53,094 bases of DNA. It comes from Candidatus Yanofskybacteria bacterium RIFCSPLOWO2_01_FULL_49_17. GTDB lineage: Bacteria > Patescibacteriota > Minisyncoccia > 2-02-FULL-40-12 > GWA2-44-9. Made by a program: the position numbers and the translations under genes. Location: NCBI GenBank assembly GCA_001795695.1, contig MGKO01000004.1, positions 1 to 53,094 on the forward strand. Reading direction: 5' to 3'. Positions 4,485 to 49,286 of this stretch are shown here, piece after piece. How positions within the stretch are numbered: the first letter of the stretch is position 1; each line of letters starts with the position of its first letter. The notes beneath the pieces are model-generated. The model made no database searches and had not been told where the DNA came from. It worked only from the letters and a program-made list of their open reading frames with translations.

Positions 4485-4583
4485 TGTCCCAATACATTGA
4501 TAACCCGCTTTCGCCTATGAGTTACGCCTGCCTGCCTGCCGGCAGGCAGGGACGGACAGGCAAAAAGTGGAGGAGCTGGAGAT
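4484..4583 (+). pseudogene. Duplicated 5' fragment of the transketolase-N gene, disrupted by a palindrome-containing insert
   Basis: ATAATGTCCCAATACATTGATAAC..CAAAAAGTGGAGGAGCTGGAGA matches 5332-5380 (ATAATGTCCCAATATATCGACGATAAAAAAGTGGAAGAGTTGGAAA). It contains a ~55-nt insert and is out of frame afterwards. Confidence 0.7.
4531..4550. repeat. Palindrome CCTGCCTGCCGGCAGGCAGG (P1), intergenic copy
   Basis: Perfect 20-nt palindrome. Confidence 0.95.
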
Positions 4584-7706: not shown

Positions 7707-8327
7707 TTAAGATTTTTTCAGGATCTCTTTCAATCGGGCCAGGTCTTTTTCTATCTTGTCTTTTACGGTCGGGTCTTTGGTTGCATAACTCGGATGAAAA
7801 GTAGGGACCAGCTCGTAACTGCCGAAGTTGAATGTCCGGCCGTGGACGTTATCAAGCGGCTGGCGGAGGCCTACCCCATTTAAGGCAAGATTACCCAAAG
7901 TAACGACCAGTGACGGGTTCAAGCTTTTCAGCTCTTCCTTCAAAAACGCGGCATGGGCCTTGAGCTCCTTAGGCGTCGGCACCTTGCCGTTAGGGTAGTA
8001 TTTGACGAGATTGGTTACGTAGATCTTTTTTTTATCCAAGCCCACGGTTTTGAGGACCTGATGGAATAATTTCTCGGATTGGCCGGCCAGCGGCTTGGCT
8101 TCTTTTTCGCCGTCGGAGTTAAGCATTTCGCCGACAAAAACCACTTTTGCCCCGACTAAACCGCTTCCGAATATCAATTTCTTATCATTGAACTTCTTTT
8201 TCAGGGCTCTGTGGACCCTTTCAAGTTCCTCGGGGGTTGTGGTGCGGGGCGTCTTCATTGGTTCGTTCATCCCAGGGCACCGGCCTTGCGATGGCTGGAG
8301 TGTATCATTAAATCTTATTTTTTGCAA
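7707..8327 (-). CDS. Uracil-DNA glycosylase superfamily protein (family 4/5-like); start uncertain
   Basis: Motifs VVFVGEM..PLAGQSEKLF, IYVTNLVKYYP, TFHPSY. The track start is TTG and overlaps the tRNA promoter; the internal ATG (MNEPMK) is more likely. Confidence 0.6.
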   Translation of the reverse strand: MQKIRFNDTLQPSQGRCPGMNEPMKTPRTTTPEELERVHRALKKKFNDKKLIFGSGLVGAKVVFVGEMLNSDGEKEAKPLAGQSEKLFHQVLKTVGLDKKKIYVTNLVKYYPNGKVPTPKELKAHAAFLKEELKSLNPSLVVTLGNLALNGVGLRQPLDNVHGRTFNFGSYELVPTFHPSYATKDPTVKDKIEKDLARLKEILKKS

Positions 8328-8350
8328 GTTAGCCCTGTTTTTGCTATAAT
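8322..8350 (+). promoter_or_regulatory. Sigma70-like promoter for tRNA-Ile
   Basis: TTGCAA, 17-nt spacer, TATAAT, ending 14 nt before the tRNA. Confidence 0.65.
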
Positions 8351-8352
8351 TT

Positions 8353-9903
8353 TTAGGATAAAATGCGCGAGTAGTTCAGTGGTAGAACGCCTAACTGATA
8401 ATTAGGAGGTCCCAGGTTCAATCCCTGGCTCGCGCACCACGTTGGAAAAGTCAATGCCTCGCCCCGCCTTCGGCGGGTCTCGGCGACCAAATCGTACGGA
8501 TTTTTCGGGGCAAAAAGAAATTCCCGATTCCGTAAAATATGGTTCGAGCCGATGTTTTTCAGAAATGTTGTCATTTCGGAAAGATTTTCTGATTCAAGCA
8601 GATTAGCGGCTTGATTTAAGGACTTTACGAACTCACGAGCCGGTTCGAGCCAAGACAACCCTTTTGTCTCAAAGTCGGTAATTTTTTCGGTTAACTCGAT
8701 CTTTTGTGAAATGAGAATGTCTTTTTTAGCGGCGTATTCTCGTTGAGTAAGAGCGTCATCGAGATATACGTCAAGCAACTTTTGAAGTTTTGCTTCCATC
8801 TGTGATAATTGCTCTTTGAGATTTATAACTTCACTTTTGGCTTGTTCCTTTGCTTCGGTTTCTTCCGTATCCAACGCCGCCAAAACTTTCTTGGTGTCTT
8901 GGCTCGACAAAGAAACTTTTTGAAGGAAGTTTTTGATTTGAACGATAAGCTGATTTTCACCGAGATACTTTTCTTGGCACGTGCCTCGCTTCTTGGTACA
9001 GCGGTAGTAAGTGTATATACCTCCGTTGCCTTTCGCATATTGCGCAGTTATCGAGCAACCGCACGAGGCGCATTTCATAAGGCCAAGAAAAGGAAAGTTG
9101 TGTTTTCTGTCTGGGCGAATCTTGCCACGCTTAGTCATAACCTCTTGGCACAAATCAAAAAGTTTCTTTGAAATTAACGGCTCGTGTGTTCCCTCAAAAA
9201 CTTCCCCTTTGTATCTCATCAAACCAATGTAAAAGGGATTTTGGAGAATATGCTGAACATTGCTCAATGAGATTTTGTTTCCGGCATTTGTGAGCAGTTT
9301 CTTTTTCTCACACCAATTTGCGAGAGAGTTGAGTGGATATGCTCCGGTGGCGTACATCTCGAAGATTTTTCTCACTAAAGGAGATTTATCTTTATCAACA
9401 TCAATCCCTCTAGTTTTGGGATTATTGGAATATCCTACCGGAGCCCAGCTTGGCCACACTCCATTTCGTATCTTTTGGCGTAGTCCTCTTTTCACATTCT
9501 CTCGCAAATTGTCTACAAAATACTTCGATTGTCCAAAAGCAATGTTCAGCATAAATAATCCTTGCGGCGTTGGCTCAAACCAGAAGCAGGGAAATTTGAG
9601 GGAACGAATCAAGCCGCGATCCACGAAGTGAATAATCTTTCCACCGTCCACAGAATTACGCGCTAACCTGTCGGGGTGCCAAGAGATTATCCCGTCCGCT
9701 TTCCCTTGTTCCAACAATGACAACATTTCTGCGAATTTAATTCGCCCGGGTTCTTTTGCGGTTTTGGCCTCTTGGAAAGAGGCAACAATTTCAAGTTTTT
9801 CTTTGGCGGCAAATTCTTTGAGCTCAACAAGTTGAGCTTCAATGGAGAGAACTTGTCGGTCGTCTTCCTCGGTACTTTTTCTTGCGTAGATAATGTATTT
9901 CAT
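8353..9903 (-). CDS. Large serine recombinase (resolvase catalytic domain + recombinase domain + zinc ribbon + coiled coil)
   Basis: Motifs YARKSTEEDDRQVLSIEAQ (catalytic Ser), DRLARN, CASCGC..YYRC zinc ribbon, and a long coiled coil. The last ~60 codons run through repeat X and the antisense of tRNA-Ile. Confidence 0.85.
   Translation of the reverse strand: MKYIIYARKSTEEDDRQVLSIEAQLVELKEFAAKEKLEIVASFQEAKTAKEPGRIKFAEMLSLLEQGKADGIISWHPDRLARNSVDGGKIIHFVDRGLIRSLKFPCFWFEPTPQGLFMLNIAFGQSKYFVDNLRENVKRGLRQKIRNGVWPSWAPVGYSNNPKTRGIDVDKDKSPLVRKIFEMYATGAYPLNSLANWCEKKKLLTNAGNKISLSNVQHILQNPFYIGLMRYKGEVFEGTHEPLISKKLFDLCQEVMTKRGKIRPDRKHNFPFLGLMKCASCGCSITAQYAKGNGGIYTYYRCTKKRGTCQEKYLGENQLIVQIKNFLQKVSLSSQDTKKVLAALDTEETEAKEQAKSEVINLKEQLSQMEAKLQKLLDVYLDDALTQREYAAKKDILISQKIELTEKITDFETKGLSWLEPAREFVKSLNQAANLLESENLSEMTTFLKNIGSNHILRNREFLFAPKNPYDLVAETRRRRGEALTFPTWCASQGLNLGPPNYQLGVLPLNYSRILS
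8365..8439 (+). tRNA. tRNA-Ile (anticodon GAU), CCA encoded
   Basis: Cloverleaf GCGCGAG/CTCGCGC, anticodon stem CCTAA/TTAGG, loop CTGATAA, T arm CCAGG-TTCAATC-CCTGG, ACCA end. Confidence 0.9.
8440..8533. repeat. Arm X (attL side), inverted copy at 9949-10042
   Basis: 94 nt with 1 mismatch between copies. Contains the hairpin CCCGCC-TTCG-GCGGG. Confidence 0.9.
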
Positions 9904-9925
9904 AGTTTTTTGTTAATTAATGATT

Positions 9926-10214
9926 AAAATTTTTCTTTTCTGCTTCTAACGGAATCGGGAATTTCTTTTTGCCCCGAAAAATCCGTACGATTTGATCGCC
10001 GAGACCCGCCGAAGGCGGGGCGAGGCATTGACTTTTCCAACGTGGTGCAGAATACTTGAATTAGTCCGAACCGCTTTCGCCGCCTGCGGCGGCGAGGAAG
10101 TCCCCCCGCGAAAATCCGGAAAGGCGGCGGAGCCGCACGAATCAAAACCGCAAAAGAACCCGTTAAAAACATCGGCTCGAACCATATTTTGTAGAAGCAG
10201 AAAAGAAAAATTTT
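9926..10214. repeat. Internal attP-like segment bounded by perfect 23-bp inverted repeats
   Basis: The sequence aaaatttttcttttctgcttcta (9926-9948) is the reverse complement of 10192-10214. The interior is X' + TGGTGC + Y + a 26-nt block (10165-10190), and that block is the reverse complement of 8534-8559. Confidence 0.85.
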
Positions 10215-10362
10215 CATAAGGATTCTTAATGCAAGAACTCATCGAGTTTCTTTTTTATTTTGGCTTGATTTTTATTAACATTTCAGCTAATGTAACTTTG
10301 GTATTAAGCTCGATTGTCGGGCTTAAATCGTACATTCCCAACTAAAGAGAGGAGAAATACGC

Positions 10363-11265
10363 ATGGAATTACAAACTGAAGTCGCAGGCATTCGATTGGA
10401 ACATCCACTGATGAACGCAGCGGGAACATGCAAGATGTTGGAGGACGTGAAAGAGCTTTCGCGTTCAGCCACAGCGGCGGTCATGGTCGGCTCAATCACT
10501 GTGGAGCCGAGGACTGGCAACGCTGGCGATGTCTACTGGGCAGGACCGATGTTCTCGCTCAACTCGCTCGGTCTTCCGAATCGCGGTGCGCCGTATTACA
10601 GAGAGGTACTTCCCGAGATGGTCGCGGTGGCTCACGGCGAAGGCAAGCCACTTTTCGTGAGTGTGGCTGGCTTCTCACCAGAGGAGTACACAGACCTCAC
10701 GGAGTTGGCGTTCCGTGGCGGGGCAGACCTCGTGGAGCTGAACCTCGGCTGTCCCAACGTGTGGCAAGGCAGCGCGCAGAAGCGCATCGCGTGTTTCGAT
10801 CCGGCACTGGTCGCAGAAGTGCTACGCCGTGTCGAGGAGAGAGTCGGAGCCGACATGAAAGTTTCGGTCAAGATTTCTCCTTTCTCAGACCCTTTCGCAC
10901 TTGCCGAAGTGGCGCAGGTCATCGGCGCATCGAAAGTGGCGAAGGCCGTCACAACGGTGAACACCTTCCCTAACGCGTTCAGCTACAACGGCGCGAAGCC
11001 GAGAATCACGCCGGGTGGTGGCCTTGCTGGATTCGCCGGACCAGCGATGAAGCCGATCGGTCTCGGACAAGTCAGGCAACTTCGCGGACTTCTCCCGGAG
11101 CACATTCAGATCATCGGTGTCGGTGGCATCACGCACGGTCAGGACATTCAGGAGTATCGCGAGAGCGGTGCAGTAGCAACGCAAGTAGCCACCGCCTATC
11201 TCGAGCGACACGAGCAGGTGTTCAGTTCGTTCCTCGGCGAGCTCCTCGAAGTCGCGAGCGAATGA
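10363..11265 (+). CDS. pyrD: Dihydroorotate dehydrogenase, class 1A-like
   Basis: Motifs NAAGTCK, SLNSLGLPNRG, NLGCPNV (catalytic Cys), KISPF, IIGVGGITHGQD, plus SD GAGAGGAG. The gene is visibly GC-richer than its flanks; the ORF track shows 181-aa and 170-aa shadow ORFs in other frames. Confidence 0.8.
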   Translation: MELQTEVAGIRLEHPLMNAAGTCKMLEDVKELSRSATAAVMVGSITVEPRTGNAGDVYWAGPMFSLNSLGLPNRGAPYYREVLPEMVAVAHGEGKPLFVSVAGFSPEEYTDLTELAFRGGADLVELNLGCPNVWQGSAQKRIACFDPALVAEVLRRVEERVGADMKVSVKISPFSDPFALAEVAQVIGASKVAKAVTTVNTFPNAFSYNGAKPRITPGGGLAGFAGPAMKPIGLGQVRQLRGLLPEHIQIIGVGGITHGQDIQEYRESGAVATQVATAYLERHEQVFSSFLGELLEVASE

Positions 11266-11420
11266 ATCGCTCGCAGAAAATCGTCCCAACGGGACGCACA
11301 TTGGAAACAGTGTACGTCCCCTTTCTTTTTCAAAGAACAAAGAATTTGCCGCCAAGACCGAAATTCGGTAGAATTTCAGTAATCCGAATTCCGCCAAAGA
11401 AAAACTTGAAATTGTCAGCG

Positions 11421-11522
11421 GTGCGGCTCCGCCGCCTTTCCGTCCGCCAGCTGGCGGATTCGCGGGGGGAGTTCCTCGCCGCCACAGGCGGCGAAAGCGG
11501 TTCGGACTAATTCAAGTATTCT
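11421..11522. repeat. Arm Y' (attR side), inverted copy of 10049-10138, carrying a palindrome insertion
   Basis: Reverse complement of Y except for 2-3 substitutions and the 14-nt insert tccgccagctggcg at 11443-11456. Confidence 0.85.
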
Positions 11523-11541
11523 GCACCAGTAGTAAAATTTC

Positions 11542-11614
11542 GGGCCCGTAGCTCAGTTGGTAGAGCACCTCATTTGCAATGAGGGGGTCAGCGGTCCGAA
11601 TCCGCTCGGGTCCA
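11542..11614 (+). tRNA. tRNA-Ala (anticodon UGC), no encoded CCA
   Basis: Acceptor GGGCCCG/CGGGTCC with the G3:U70 identity pair, anticodon loop TTTGCAA, T arm GCGGT-CCGAATC-CGCTC. Confidence 0.9.
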
Positions 11615-11627
11615 CAAAGAATAAAAC

Positions 11628-15967: not shown

Positions 15968-16099
15968 CTTATAGGTGATAGGAAATAGTTTATAGTAAAA
16001 TCATAATCGCGCTGTAAGCGCGATTATGATTTTATCTGGCTATCATCCTATAACCTATAACCTATAACCTATAACCTATAACCTATAACCTATAACCTA
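15968..16099. repeat. H7 hairpin with 7 tandem CCTATAA units and an inner terminator
   Basis: Arm 1 is cttataggtgataggaaatagtttatagt. The inner perfect 16-bp hairpin is at 15997-16033. Arm 2 ends in (CCTATAA)x7 at 16047-16095, running into the pth stop codon. Confidence 0.8.
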
Positions 16100-34306: not shown

Positions 34307-34377
34307 TTAGCTTTTTAGCTGATTAGCTTATTAGGGTAACCTAAAAAGCTAGTAAGCTGATAAGCTAGTAAGCTAAA
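34307..34377. repeat. H7 hairpin, AGCTAAT family
   Basis: ttagctttttagctgattagcttattaggg-taa-cctaaaaagctagtaagctgataagctagtaagctaaa, followed directly by the TTG start. Confidence 0.75.
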
Positions 34378-34845: not shown

Positions 34846-34920
34846 GTAATCAGCTTCTTAGCTGATTAGCTGACTAGGGCAACCTAAGAAGCTAGTAAGC
34901 TGATAAGCTAGTAAGCTAAG
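34846..34920. repeat. H7 hairpin, AGCTAAT family
   Basis: Close relative of 34307-34377. Ends ..gctagtaagctaag followed by TTG. Confidence 0.75.
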
Positions 34921-44995: not shown

Positions 44996-45100
44996 CCCGT
45001 TAGAAATCACGAACAACCATGAAAAAAATGATAAATAACCAAATAAACCAGACCAGCCACCGTTTCAAAACGGTGGACGGATTGTTTGATTTCTAACGGG
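44996..45100. repeat. T2 element copy a (105 nt, TIR CCCGTTAGAAATCA / TGATTTCTAACGGG)
   Basis: Identical to 46029-46133 and 46321-46425. Starts 1 nt after the rplN stop and ends at the rplX ATG. The inner hairpin CCACCGTTT-caaa-ACGGTGG is present. A 25-codon mini-ORF spans 45019-45096. Confidence 0.9.
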
Positions 45101-45406
45101 ATGAAGATTAAGAAGGGCGACAACGTGAAAATGCTGGGCGGGAAAGACCGGAACAAGACCGGCAAGGTTTTGGCCGTGATGCCTGCCGAAAATCTGCTGG
45201 TCATTGAGGGTTTAAATCTTGTTAAAAAACATACCCGGGCCAGAAAGCAGGGCCAAAAGGGACAGATCATCCATAAAGAACGGGCTGTCAGCGCGGCCAG
45301 TGTTGCTCTTGTCTGCAGGTCTTGCGGTAAGGCGACCCGCGTCGGCTATAAACTGACCGGTGACGCGAAAATCCGTGTTTGTAAAAAGTGTCAATCCGAG
45401 ATATAA
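45101..45406 (+). CDS. rplX: Ribosomal protein L24
   Basis: MKIKKGDNV.....KD..KTGKV. The MISNG prefix in the track is translated T2 repeat. Confidence 0.9.
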   Translation: MKIKKGDNVKMLGGKDRNKTGKVLAVMPAENLLVIEGLNLVKKHTRARKQGQKGQIIHKERAVSAASVALVCRSCGKATRVGYKLTGDAKIRVCKKCQSEI

Positions 45407-45490: not shown

Positions 45491-46036
45491 ATGACTAGCT
45501 TACTGCAAAATTACCGAAAGAACGTCATTCCTGCCCTACAGAAAGAGTTTCATATTGGCAACGCTATGGCTGCGCCCAAGATCGTCAAAGTTACGATCAA
45601 TACCGGTGTCGGGAGATTTGCCAAAGACGACAAAACCCTGGAGCGTATTGCTAAGGACATAGCCATACTTTCAGGCCAAAAGCCGGTCTTCCGGGCGGCC
45701 AAAAAGTCCATCGCCAGTTTTAAGGTCCGGCAGGGCGTGCCAGTCGGTATTTCGGTCACTCTCCGCGGCCAGCGCATGTATGACTTCATCAGCCGTCTGA
45801 TAAATATCGCATTGCCCCGCTCCAGGGACTTTCGCGGGATTGAAACGAAGAACATAGACCGGAACGGCAATCTGAATCTCGGTCTGCGCGAGTCCAGCAT
45901 TTTCCCGGAGCTCAATTATGAGAATATGAAAGACATTTTCAGCTTGGAGGTTTCAGTCACCACCACGGCCAAGACCCATGAGCAGGGCGTGGCATTATTA
46001 AAGCACTTAGGTTTTCCAATCAAAAAATCCCGTTAG
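45491..46036 (+). CDS. rplE: Ribosomal protein L5
   Basis: PKIVKVTINTGVG and FRGI....D..GN.N.G. The stop codon TAG is supplied by the T2 terminal repeat. Confidence 0.95.
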   Translation: MTSLLQNYRKNVIPALQKEFHIGNAMAAPKIVKVTINTGVGRFAKDDKTLERIAKDIAILSGQKPVFRAAKKSIASFKVRQGVPVGISVTLRGQRMYDFISRLINIALPRSRDFRGIETKNIDRNGNLNLGLRESSIFPELNYENMKDIFSLEVSVTTTAKTHEQGVALLKHLGFPIKKSR

Positions 46037-46133
46037 AAATCACGAACAACCATGAAAAAAATGATAAATAACCAAATAAACCAGACCAGCCACCGTTTCA
46101 AAACGGTGGACGGATTGTTTGATTTCTAACGGG
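46029..46133. repeat. T2 element copy b
   Basis: 100% identical to copy a. Ends at the rpsN ATG. Confidence 0.9.
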
Positions 46134-46319
46134 ATGGCCAAAAAATCCACAATTGCCCGTTCCAATAAGAAGCCCAAGTTTTCTACCCGAACAGTCAGGC
46201 GCTGTTTCCTGTGCGGCCGCAAGGGCGGCTACATCGGCAGATTTGGTCTCTGCAGAATCCATTTTCGTGAATTGGCCAGTGCCGGACTTTTACCCGGAGT
46301 TAAAAAATCAAGCTGGTAA
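46134..46319 (+). CDS. rpsN: Ribosomal protein S14, zinc-binding short (type Z) form
   Basis: C.LCGR..G....[19 protein letters not shown]. Confidence 0.9.
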
Positions 46320-46320
46320 T

Positions 46321-46425
46321 CCCGTTAGAAATCACGAACAACCATGAAAAAAATGATAAATAACCAAATAAACCAGACCAGCCACCGTTTCAAAACGGTG
46401 GACGGATTGTTTGATTTCTAACGGG
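46321..46425. repeat. T2 element copy c
   Basis: 100% identical to copies a and b. Ends at the rpsH ATG. Confidence 0.9.
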
Positions 46426-46824
46426 ATGGACCCAATATCAGACATGCTCAACCGAATAAAGACCGCTTCAATGGCCCGTCAAGACCAGGTGATGATGCCG
46501 TTCTCAAAGATGAAATTAGCGATAGCCGATGTTCTTTTGAGTGCAGGATACATTTCCGGCGCAGAGAGAAAGAGCAAGAAACATAAAAAATCAGAGCATG
46601 AATACCTACTTATAGGATTGAAATACAACGACGGGACATCAGCCATCTCCGGTATTAGGATGATCAGCCGGCAGTCCCGACGGATGTACCTGACGGCTGA
46701 TGAGATAAAACCGGTCCGTTCCGGTCACGGTCTGGCCATCCTCTCCACCTCCAAAGGAGTGATGAGCTCCCGTGATGCCCGCAAACAGCATGTCGGCGGA
46801 GAGATAATTTGTGAAATCTGGTAA
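46426..46824 (+). CDS. rpsH: Ribosomal protein S8
   Basis: DPISDMLNRIK and GGEIICEIW. Confidence 0.95.
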   Translation: MDPISDMLNRIKTASMARQDQVMMPFSKMKLAIADVLLSAGYISGAERKSKKHKKSEHEYLLIGLKYNDGTSAISGIRMISRQSRRMYLTADEIKPVRSGHGLAILSTSKGVMSSRDARKQHVGGEIICEIW

Positions 46825-49219: not shown

Positions 49220-49286
49220 CTTTTTAGCTGATTAGCTTATTAGGGTAACCTAAAAAGCTAGTAAGCTAGTAAGCTAATAAGCTAGA
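49220..49286. repeat. H7 hairpin, AGCTAAT family
   Basis: The 5' arm and loop are identical to 34311-34358. Ends ..taagctaga followed by TTG. Confidence 0.75.

Follow-up and report, generated by a model that had tools for sequence, protein, structure and literature searches.

The 53,094-nucleotide stretch of DNA analyzed here (the window) carries, between tRNA-Ile and tRNA-Ala genes, what is very probably a copy, in integrated form, of a compact mobile element (2.5-3.4 kb) that occurs in Patescibacteria. This copy comprises positions 8440-11522 together with a shared core, and was in all likelihood formed when its recombinase joined attP to the tRNA-Ile gene. The element is real and of the known large-serine-integrase kind, with new features. 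It belongs to a large Patescibacteria family that is able to use almost any tRNA gene as a landing site and is apparently undescribed; no published description was found in the literature on serine recombinases or integrases at tRNAs in Patescibacteria, CPR or Parcubacteria. Features of the locus are listed below, with strand where one applies.

8321-8350: promoter-like site belonging to tRNA-Ile
8353-9903, minus strand: large serine recombinase ORF, 516 aa; conserved body 8534-9903, tail crossing arm X and the core into tRNA-Ile antisense
8365-8439, plus strand: tRNA-Ile(GAU), integration target and B half of attB (ARAGORN; Rfam 75.8 bits)
8434-8439, plus strand: attL core GCACCA, tRNA nt 71-76
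8440-8533: outer X arm, P' half-site and GC-rich local hairpin; its minus strand encodes recombinase tail codons 457-489
9904-9948, minus strand: recombinase leader/upstream region U, conserved block 9926-9948
9949-10042: inner X arm, inverted copy of 8440-8533
10028-10056, plus strand: putative sigma-70-like promoter over the internal attP, facing the cargo (TTGACT-17-AATACT)
10043-10048, minus strand: core of the internal inverted attP (TGGTGC on the plus strand)
10049-10138: inner Y arm, P half-site with T-loop-like GTTCGGAC motif and local hairpin
10143-10214, plus strand: candidate second-recombinase relics in sense order, namely recombinase (rec) nt 138-157 (10143-10162), nt 1345-1370 then TAG (10165-10194) and a copy of U (10192-10214)
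10250-11330, plus strand: cargo, with pyr-operon leader hairpin (10250-10349), pyrD (10363-11265) and terminator hairpin with T-run (about 11283-11330)
11338-11415, plus strand: candidate relic of rec nt 84-119, broken by a 35-nt insert with a 7-nt duplication
11421-11522: outer Y' arm, holding a 16-nt host-type palindrome (11443-11458) that is missing from the inner copy
11523-11528, plus strand: attR core GCACCA
11542-11615, plus strand: tRNA-Ala(UGC), former neighbor of tRNA-Ile, B' side (ARAGORN; Rfam 69.1 bits)

From the end of tRNA-Ile (8439) to the start of tRNA-Ala (11542) there are 3.09 kb, with GCACCA at both bounds. This interval is made of two adjoining segments, X (the recombinase module, S1) and Y (the pyrD module, S2), each lying between inverted repeats of ~100 nt. 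The X repeat (8434-8533 and 9949-10048) spans 100 nt at 99% identity, while the Y repeat covers 70 nt at 97% (10043-10112 and 11459-11528) plus 10117-10138 and 11421-11442; the two overlap at the middle site by the 6-nt core. The left site is the tRNA end, GCACCA and X, the right site is Y', GCACCA and the spacer, and the reverse complement of the middle site is Y', GCACCA and X. This three-site relationship had been proposed in an earlier note made from the sequence alone; it is correct and far beyond chance. Probes of 29-30 nt from each arm matched no other place in the 53-kb window, and shuffled sequences give an expectation of 0 matches. The arms are common to the sites, as claimed, but extend for ~100 nt rather than ~15. 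The core GCACCA likewise stands at all three sites, but in the family the block held in common with the target is usually only 4 nt. The content ascribed to the insert, a large serine recombinase (minus strand) and a DHO_dh gene with a GC content of about 0.60, was found as described. What had been overlooked was that the recombinase ORF continues past arm X and into tRNA antisense sequence, and that short exact copies of parts of the recombinase gene lie in the pyrD flanks.

The recombinase has the Resolvase (PF00239, residues 4-150, E 9.8e-22), Recombinase (PF07508, residues 172-259, E 7.5e-20) and Zn_ribbon_recom (PF13408, residues 271-325, E 5.9e-8) domains, and its N-terminus carries the motif YARKS(10)TEED of a serine-nucleophile catalytic domain. 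Of its relatives with solved structures, the best matches are the integrases of SPbeta (E 5.5e-12) and A118, with alignments spanning residues 5-407 and 202-382, respectively. Residues ~340-420 contain many heptad-like E/K/L/Q runs and align with the corresponding part of the SPbeta integrase; they may represent the coiled-coil motif that controls directionality from within the zinc-ribbon domain of large serine recombinases. A profile search gave no MerR/HTH match, and the catalytic domain begins at residue 4; an IS607-family serine transposase was ruled out for lack of an N-terminal MerR-like domain. The exact protein sequence is not on record in a sequence look-up, and no canonical promoter for the gene passed the scan. 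The ORF is open across all 33 arm codons in 79 of 81 loci, the exceptions being L050 and L036, the latter on a contig that ends 2 nt past the recombinase end. Because the ORF crosses attL, its last residues depend on the integration state; only those after about codon 490 change with integration.

Insertion was assessed by comparison with an unoccupied site, a check that the earlier note had suggested. Metagenome contig L084 contains a UDG homologue, tRNA-Ile, a 5-nt spacer (gataa) and tRNA-Ala(TGC) without an insert, so that the tRNA-Ile/tRNA-Ala site is polymorphic for presence and absence between this contig and the window. Its tRNA-Ile is identical over 75 nt, ending ...GCGCACCA, and the upstream synteny (the UDG homologue) is conserved. 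Note that the contig comes from a related organism and not the same one, as its tRNA-Ala and spacer differ; the empty-site junction for the window locus itself would read ...GCGCACCAGTAGTAAAATTTCGGGCCCG. Insertion would have split a once contiguous tRNA-Ile/tRNA-Ala pair and supplied the CCA end anew.

Recombinase homologues number more than 7600; the top 120 of these are 72-91% identical, and their named sources are almost all Patescibacteria groups. The same architecture was found in L001, L003 and about 40 genome loci, and overall in more than 40 independent Patescibacteria assemblies. The arms are not generic dispersed repeats, which would have spoken against the earlier note, since X and Y occur only beside homologues of this recombinase, in the same order, at more than 40 Patescibacteria loci. 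Nor is the interval ancestral, because the same element occupies the 3' ends of 29 different tRNA/anticodon types (57 loci, always the 3' end). In 47 loci the opposite-strand tRNA gene begins exactly 97 nt past the conserved recombinase end. Inverted chimeric joins around repeated sequence could in principle produce such a layout during assembly, and many homologues do sit on short contigs that end at the arms. However, order, spacing (+97 nt) and junctions agree across more than 40 assemblies that different projects made with different assemblers, and some copies lie inside contigs of 70-250 kb; we regard the chance of an assembly artefact as negligible.

The cores of the left, middle and right sites (L, M and R) co-vary with the tRNA end at positions 71-73 (GCAC, CCAC, GAGC, CCGC, GGACA, CTAC). 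In about 40 loci, L is composed of B + X and R of Y' + B', with identity blocks of 3-7 nt; the usual 4-nt block corresponds to the last two acceptor bases, the discriminator and C74. Short attP/attB identity and hybrid attL/attR sites, as for large serine integrases, are present throughout these loci. The attP left arm contains a GTTCG motif resembling that of the tRNA T-loop, and a consensus built from 47 L sites and about 40 M sites places its start 24 nt away from tRNA nt 72 in arm Y' versus 19 nt in the tRNA T-loop, i.e., 5 bp farther from the crossover in attP than the real T-loop is in the tRNA. The published rule for large serine integrases is that the zinc-ribbon-domain motif of attB lies nearer the crossover, by 5 bp, than that of attP (PMC3783163), and the GTTCG shift matches it. 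This match accounts for the ability of any tRNA to serve as target. The B' side of attB has about zero information. Recognition would proceed through the tRNA half only, with the universal T-loop (GGTTCGAnTCC) as the zinc-ribbon-domain motif and the downstream half of attB free, in which case the choice of tRNA would be set mainly by the 2-4 nt core; this core differs between element lineages. In the window, the recombinase would have joined attP (Y'-core-X) to the 3' end of tRNA-Ile by a crossover probably located within tRNA nt 71-73. Cues to its position diverge, dyad symmetry favoring nt 71-72 and L/R identity blocks favoring 72-73, and L034, L041 and L044 are each at odds with one option unless mutated later.

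Each segment lies between long inverted repeats with a common core, and the recombinase module is reversed relative to the cargo in a few rare loci (L089, L090 and L051). Such an arrangement is what a resident two-segment inversion switch of the shufflon or phase-variation type would have, with an invertase flipping the X and Y segments and no insertion involved. That reading is very unlikely. With its 516 aa and its recombinase and zinc-ribbon domains, the protein is not a Hin/Gin-type invertase of ~190 aa, a class that was ruled out both by this size and because the unit is an insertion. Furthermore, the whole unit is missing from the relative's tRNA-Ile/tRNA-Ala site yet found at 29 tRNA types, and a single orientation is common to 73 of 84 genome loci. 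Inversion may take place at the locus, although it is not what the locus is. Tandem arrays, multi-cassette arrays and flipped isomers at L008, L026, L041, L051, L089 and L090 show ongoing rearrangement at element sites.

The cargo pyrD encodes a class-1 DHODH (DHO_dh). At the DNA level the cargo is 84% identical to the leader and pyrD found in a native locus of the order tRNA-Val-leader-pyrF-pyrD-pyrE. Judging from sequence, S2 is a cassette for the expression of a single gene, in this copy pyrD together with a leader and a terminator that belong to a native Patescibacteria pyr operon. The cargo is nearly always one ORF, and 36 families are represented among 42 elements. Recent swapping of cassettes between lineages is unsupported: a methyltransferase cassette common to L008 and L033 is 80% identical versus 75% for the recombinase module.

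On either side of pyrD, the short copies of recombinase sequence are what a decayed copy of that gene would leave, and matching relics of a second recombinase gene occur in L001, L003, L008 and L089. An explanation in which these copies form one secondary structure with S1 was rejected, as the pairs cross each other. S2 as a whole is laid out as Y, rec nt 138-157, a deletion, nt 1345-1370 with a stop, U, cargo, nt 84-119 and Y', the cargo taking the place of rec nt 1-83; this is the anatomy of a decayed second copy of the element. The locus could then be two tandem elements, an X-bounded recombinase element having inserted between the tRNA and an older, decayed Y-bounded cassette, with the middle site as a scar. 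Since B' contributes no information to attB, a tRNA that already has an insert can be targeted once more, and tandem arrays and double cassettes do exist (L026, L041, L008 and L090). Against this, the middle core runs in the opposite polarity to the cores of attL and attR, and S1 alone at a tRNA was not clearly found, save for L051, which has S1 flanked by two tRNA 3' ends and no S2. S1 and S2 also occur together, their cores matched, at more than 20 different tRNA types, and therefore the pair moves as one unit today. Conservative insertion module by module in the present day was rejected for non-palindromic cores: when a core is non-palindromic, as CC or GA is, conservative insertion of a circle cannot yield the inverted polarity seen in the middle. 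We consider the tandem reading unlikely for the locus; it is likely an account of the unit's origin and not of its present-day behavior.

Under the preferred reading of a single integrated element, an intact inverted attP lies where S1 and S2 meet. It is conserved across the family as part of its structure; the earlier note had recorded this site without explaining it. Once integrated, an ordinary element should have no attP left, and a canonical large serine integrase should neither need nor tolerate one inside; the retained copy counts against a plain large-serine-integrase reading. In the integrated state, this site is the sole complete copy of a near-consensus promoter, with the -35 in X and the -10 in Y, and a promoter-like TTGAC(T/A)-17-TATTCT crosses the internal attP at the same offset in 42 of 51 elements. 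The putative promoter faces the cargo; it was called by consensus match only, and its conservation could reflect recombinase contacts alone.

Nested long-range helices inside the recombinase gene, among them 173-188:1329-1344 and 997-1009:1247-1259, exhibit compensatory changes with no strand bias. Their mismatches show no G-U bias towards either strand (3.7% versus 4.0%), and consensus-fold energies are -618.6 (sense) and -619.3 (antisense). RNA structure as the basis of arm identity was rejected, since mismatches between arm copies lack G-U bias (X, 23 versus 20; Y, 22 versus 18); many of these mismatches are transversions. One improbable account gives the element a single-stranded stage. 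If the circle had one strand only, the attP at its junction (Y'-core-X) and the internal inverted copy (X'-core-Y) would be exact complements over ~206 nt. The circle would fold as a dumbbell, with attP as its fully double-stranded stem and with the recombinase loop compacted by at least six nested long-range helices. Serine recombinases would then have their own equivalent of integron attC sites and of the folded attP(+) of CTX-phi. Such a stage would explain the conserved intact inverted attP, the constant match of the internal core to the lineage's target core, and pairing constraints on coding sequence at the level of DNA and not RNA.

No circle-junction form was found among 120 homologue clusters, and all evidence comes from integrated copies. 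In two of the 120 clusters (P0051 and P0089) the recombinase tail reads into arm Y, both being integrated or rearranged copies. If excised, the circle would hold two identical recombinase sites in ~200-bp inverted repeats and two unique segments, in the manner of the 2-micron plasmid, and both relative segment orientations occur in nature (the window versus L089). The 2-micron plasmid differs in having a tyrosine recombinase (FLP), autonomous replication and no integration. The element contains only the recombinase and one cargo gene, and no candidate directionality factor was found within it; we know of no common sequence signature for such factors, which could be encoded elsewhere. No close relatives were found in IMG/VR, and there is therefore no evidence for phage origin.

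Tn4451 and Tn5397 (TnpX, TndX) resemble the element in being small and cargo-bearing, with a large serine recombinase and a circular form, the junction of which is reported to create a promoter. They insert at GA-dinucleotide sites resembling their own ends, not at tRNA ends, and to our knowledge have neither an internal attP copy nor paired ~100-nt inverted repeats. Prochlorococcus tycheposons are similar in that they are said to integrate at tRNA genes and to carry cargo, in streamlined genomes without classical transfer machinery; they are reportedly larger, confined to a few specific tRNAs and equipped mostly with tyrosine recombinases and with replication modules, unlike the element here. 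We know of no report of a double inverted-repeat architecture in them. Integron cassettes are likewise single, highly diverse and mostly promoterless genes beside a recombination site, facing a platform promoter, and here too arrays can grow at the recombination-proximal end (L008 and L090). Integrons, however, use a tyrosine recombinase and attC sites that form by the folding of single strands, and their chromosomal platform is fixed, whereas here the recombinase is serine-type and the platform moves; an integron was ruled out because no tyrosine recombinase is present.

The large serine integrases of phages and ICEs (Listeria A118/LI, SPbeta SprA, Bxb1 and phiC31) have the same three-domain protein, similarity to those of SPbeta and A118 being weak but significant. 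They also have the same attP x attB logic, with hybrid attL/attR, a short identity block and a 5-bp inward shift in attB (PMC3783163). The element here differs from theirs in being only ~3 kb, without phage, conjugation or directionality-factor genes. Essentially any tRNA can provide its attB, at the 3' end, and only one half-site is informative; its core dinucleotide varies by lineage and its ORF crosses attP; and when integrated it keeps an intact inverted attP within ~100-nt perfect repeats. Archaeal SSV-type "suicidal" integrases have the recombination site inside the integrase ORF, so that integration alters the gene product (PMC7253208). These are tyrosine recombinases whose gene is split in two, whereas here only the residues after about codon 490 change.

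The family represents a very abundant, apparently undescribed vehicle for single-gene transfer in Patescibacteria. These bacteria have tiny genomes and no obvious conjugation machinery, and the element bears on how they gain metabolic genes such as pyrD. It provides a natural large serine integrase that would recognize the universal tRNA T-loop and acceptor end through one half-site, and its retargeting between tRNAs by a change of 2-4 nt in the core is relevant to the engineering of programmable integrases. Three features lie outside the current picture of serine integrases: an inverted attP conserved inside the element, a recombinase ORF that runs across an att site, and nested helices in the recombinase gene that favor neither strand. 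Each offers a testable handle on the regulation or transfer of such elements.

The three sites described between the two tRNA genes in the earlier note were borne out by the tRNA calls, by inverted repeats X and Y, by the uniqueness of their arms, and by the recombinase and pyrD ORFs.

Features of the locus (primes denote the reverse-complement sense of an arm)
8365–8439, + strand: tRNA-Ile(GAU), called by ARAGORN and Rfam
8434–8533 and 9949–10048: inverted repeat X, 100 nt, 99% identity
Within the X pair, − strand: recombinase ORF, 516 aa, domains Resolvase, Recombinase and Zn_ribbon_recom
10043–10112 and 11459–11528, plus 10117–10138 and 11421–11442: inverted repeat Y
Within the Y pair: dihydroorotate dehydrogenase gene (pyrD), GC about 0.60
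11542–11615, + strand: tRNA-Ala(UGC), called by ARAGORN and Rfam

Probes of arm X or Y found no further match in the 53 kb, where none is expected by chance. The X and Y pairs overlap by six bases at the middle site, and the three sites are therefore composed of shared halves: the left site reads tRNA end, GCACCA, X; the right site reads Y′, GCACCA, spacer; and the reverse complement of the middle site reads Y′, GCACCA, X. The gap in the outer Y copy is a 16-nt palindrome, TCCGCCAGCTGGCGGA, with further copies elsewhere in the host genome.

To search for an empty site, a metagenome collection was queried with the last 25 nt of the window tRNA-Ile, and a single contig (L084) was returned. This contig carries a homologue of the uracil-DNA-glycosylase gene found upstream in the window, and its tRNA-Ile, ending ...GCGCACCA, is identical to that of the window over its full length. 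Next come the spacer gataa and tRNA-Ala(UGC), with no insert between. The empty site looked for in the earlier note thus exists, in a different though related organism, because the tRNA-Ala and downstream genes of L084 differ. Judged from this comparison of sequences, the unit between tRNA-Ile and tRNA-Ala is an insertion.

Several other features of the window were recorded. GC-rich palindromes are dispersed at 4531, 7276, 23664 and 39567 (CCTGCCTGCCGGCAGGCAGG) and at 11443, 14755 and 21347 (TCCGCCAGCTGGCGGA). The copy at 11443 is inserted in the outer Y′ arm and not the inner one; since the outer arm alone has a host-type palindrome, the element's residence has lasted long enough for it to gain one. 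Positions 1–374 are the 3′ end of a 16S rRNA gene. The tRNA-Ile/tRNA-Ala pair lies 8 kb downstream and has a promoter-like site of its own (8321–8350), and no 23S rRNA was found within the 53-kb window; the rRNA operon is therefore unlinked. A 108–112-nt sequence in three direct copies (44996–45103, 46026–46137 and 46318–46429) ends in 14–16-nt terminal inverted repeats (CCCGTTAGAAATCA...TGATTTCTAACGGG) and resembles a miniature inverted-repeat element. A 7-nt tandem repeat (CCTATAA, seven copies) and recurring intergenic AAGCTAGTAAGCT motifs occur at 16047–16099, 34346–34376, 34889–34919 and 49255–49276.

The protein collection contained more than 7600 homologues of the recombinase. The top 120 share 72–91% identity with it, and those among them that are named come nearly all from Patescibacteria (Adler-, Kuenen-, Moran-, Lipton-, Brenner-, Jorgensen- and Yanofskybacteria and others). 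The loci analyzed comprised three contigs obtained by exact protein (L001–L003) and 80 genome loci (L004–L083). An X-homologous inverted repeat of ~100 nt flanks the recombinase gene on both sides in 55 of the 62 loci with enough flank, and its copies are mostly 97–100% identical within a locus versus only 75–90% between loci. In ~43 loci a second, Y-homologous inverted repeat (~90–105 nt) adjoins the inner X arm and encloses 0.7–2.1 kb. The middle site is Y′-core-X, inverted, in all cases, and the module orientation of the window is common to 73 of 84 genome loci. In two Adlerbacteria genomes (L002 and L011), both at the same tRNA-Phe, the inner Y arm and the adjacent relics of the recombinase gene are deleted, which destroys the internal attP; this variant resembles a decaying copy passed down vertically.

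An opposite-strand tRNA gene starts exactly 97 nt past the conserved recombinase end in 47 loci, and 87–99 nt past it in 10 more. These 57 tRNA-adjoining loci represent 29 tRNA/anticodon types and 13 amino acids. The core common to the left, middle and right sites varies with the target tRNA.

Cores and their target tRNAs
GCAC(CA): most loci
CCAC(CA): Ala, Val, Leu
GAGC(CA): Asn
CCGC(CA): Ser
CAGC and CTGC: Gln, Glu
GGACA: Arg(UCU) genes without encoded CCA
CTACA and GTACA: Glu

The shared block is typically four bases, namely nt 71–72, the discriminator and C74. Many loci lack CCA at the right junction, and the encoded CCA present after integration therefore comes from the element. With all loci combined, the crossover would fall within tRNA nt 71–73: the right edge is set by L015 and L024, L041 and L044 oppose nt 71, and the dyad symmetry of attP favours 71–72.

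Sites were then aligned on the core, using 47 left, about 40 middle and about 40 right sites. The tRNA half of the 47 left sites contains the universal GGTTCGAnTCC, and sequence 3′ of the target carries essentially zero information. Arm Y′ has a conserved motif, GTTCGnACTA, which starts 5 bp farther from the crossover than the tRNA motif. The zinc-ribbon domain of the Listeria integrase binds a 9-bp motif at attP half-site positions 16–24, and in attB the identical motif lies 5 bp nearer the centre (PMC3783163). If the crossover is at nt 72–73, the motifs described here occupy positions 15–24 in Y′ and about 10–19 in the tRNA. We infer that the T-loop serves the enzyme as the attB zinc-ribbon motif, that this half-site alone is needed, and that tRNAs are told apart mainly via the core.

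Since the downstream attB half is free, an occupied tRNA would still be a potential target. Re-targeting of this kind fits the tandem arrangements in L026, L041 and L090; at the right junction of L026, Y′ is joined to a foreign X arm. Separately, a truncated tRNA fragment missing its 5′ part abuts the outer X arm in about 11 loci (L008, L016, L018, L024, L026, L051, L057, L058, L064, L074 and L083), with a full-length tRNA just beyond. In L018, L026 and probably L051, where the two were compared, the fragment has a foreign sequence and shares its isoacceptor type with the full tRNA. Such fragments may derive from the tRNA of an earlier host and have been carried off by aberrant excision.

The internal attP is intact and lies in the opposite orientation to attL and attR; at every locus examined it bears the lineage's own core. 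In the window it forms a promoter-like site (TTGACT, 17 nt, AATACT; 10028–10056). The best sigma-70 match is at the same offset in 42 of 51 elements, with a spacing of 17 nt, reading from arm X′ into arm Y toward the cargo; variants are TTGACT, TTGCAA or TTGACA at −35 and TATTCT, AATACT or GATAAT at −10. In attL, tRNA sequence replaces the −10 half and in attR the flank replaces the −35 half, so that the middle site is the sole complete copy when the element is integrated. We favour a reading in which the internal attP arose by fusion of a recombinase module with a cassette module and has been kept because it would drive the cargo as a putative promoter. The site also appears able to recombine, judging from the layouts of three loci. 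In L051 (4799–6600) the recombinase module stands alone, without a cargo module, with a complete tRNA-Ala(CGC) on one side and a tRNA 3′ fragment in inverted orientation on the other; recombination of the internal attP with a second tRNA gene, giving a chromosomal inversion, would be expected to leave such a layout. In L089 and L090 the recombinase module is flipped relative to the cargo.

The cargo module almost always holds one ORF, pointing away from the middle site, and 36 unrelated families were found among 42 elements. These include SAM methyltransferases, a short-chain dehydrogenase, a radical-SAM enzyme, a Na/Ca exchanger, an NAD(P)HX dehydratase, DUF218, a subtilase, a deoxyribosyltransferase, and many secreted or membrane proteins. 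Homologues of the window pyrD are 85–93% identical, and many lie on ~1.2-kb contigs whose ends are probably at the repeats. One genome (L087:2042–4674) has a pyrD, 88% identical, in its native locus (tRNA-Val, leader, pyrF, pyrD, pyrE). Window 10250–10349 matches its leader and 10346–11252 its pyrD, each at 84% identity, and the leader hairpin of the native operon, GCCCGATTGTCGGGC, is kept by the window cargo. A chromosomal leader-pyrD-terminator in L085 matches window 10297–11328 at 84.6% identity. From these matches, the cargo is a gene of Patescibacteria origin that was taken, along with its own leader and terminator, from a locus beside a tRNA gene; this suggests capture from DNA adjoining target tRNAs.

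The pyrD gene is flanked by exact copies of recombinase-gene pieces (relics), all sense relative to pyrD. After arm Y the order is recombinase nt 138–157, nt 1345–1370 (with the TAG stop), the leader/upstream region of the recombinase gene, cargo, nt 84–119 with a small insert, and Y′; the relics have identical order in L001, L003, L008 and L089. Drawn as a circle, this module would be a recombinase gene in which nt 1–83 were replaced by cargo, nt 158–1344 were deleted, and an 18-nt hairpin (nt 120–137) was swapped for the Y′/Y palindrome. This single model, in which the cargo module would be a decayed second element, accounts for all five relics. Arrays with two different cassettes also occur: in L008 (199–2502) they are parted by a hairpin scar consisting of two distal Y-arm halves, one from each of two arms (1298–1410), and in L090 (346–4370) they flank a single recombinase module on both sides.

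In 79 of 81 loci no stop codon interrupts the recombinase frame over the 33 codons of the outer X arm, which encode ...PKxxYxLVAERSEAxxxLxFPxWC; the exceptions are L050 and L036, a contig ending 2 nt past the recombinase end. Past the arm, the ORF enters the tRNA antisense and stops at varying positions. Across the middle site the same frame is open for another 19–69 codons in 34 of 40 loci (...WC-(R/S)ILELVRTxFAACGG...), and the protein would therefore end differently if the element were excised or the recombinase module flipped. In the flipped copy, L089, the recombinase reads through X′-TGGTGC-Y and stops after the nt 138–157 relic; the cargo, an HNH gene, lies downstream in the same direction.

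The recombinase gene (window 8534–9903, − strand) contains perfectly complementary, properly nested segments hundreds of bases apart. At least six, of 11–16 nt, are conserved across the family (64 members), and long-range inverted matches of at least 13 nt are rare in the rest of the 53-kb window.

Nested helices (recombinase nt)
173–188 with 1329–1344
287–297 with 1288–1298
351–366 with 640–655
393–406 with 577–590
734–749 with 981–996
997–1009 with 1247–1259

For the 86 base pairs of these helices in the 64 members, 80.5% were Watson-Crick versus 25–32% when the partner was slid by 1–3 columns; note that the helices were initially defined on the window sequence. Double changes were found at pairs 184:1333 (TA in 40 sequences, GC in 9), 187:1330 (TA in 44, AT in 9), 1005:1251 (AT in 47, CG in 11) and 360:646 (CG in 17, TA in 15). 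An unbiased consensus fold of 31 sequences recovered the X stem along with eight or more long-range helices, and the interior fold energy was −331 kcal/mol versus −179 to −194 for five triplet-column shuffles. The helices exhibit no strand preference (fold energy −618.6 sense, −619.3 antisense), and mismatches of the G-U type are as infrequent on one strand as on the other. Such symmetry points to single-stranded DNA, or both strands, as the level of constraint and away from the mRNA, and it motivates the idea of a single-stranded dumbbell.

By its domains, att-site logic and motif-shift rule, all read from sequence, the recombination system is a large serine integrase system. A description of such an element was not found in the literature searched in full text for Patescibacteria, CPR or Parcubacteria serine recombinases at tRNAs; one may exist beyond that literature. 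Unlike described large serine integrase systems, the element is of minimal size and single-gene cassette design, its attB is one-sided and pan-tRNA with a core diversified between lineages, an inverted attP is retained inside perfect 100-nt repeats, and its recombinase ORF crosses the att site.
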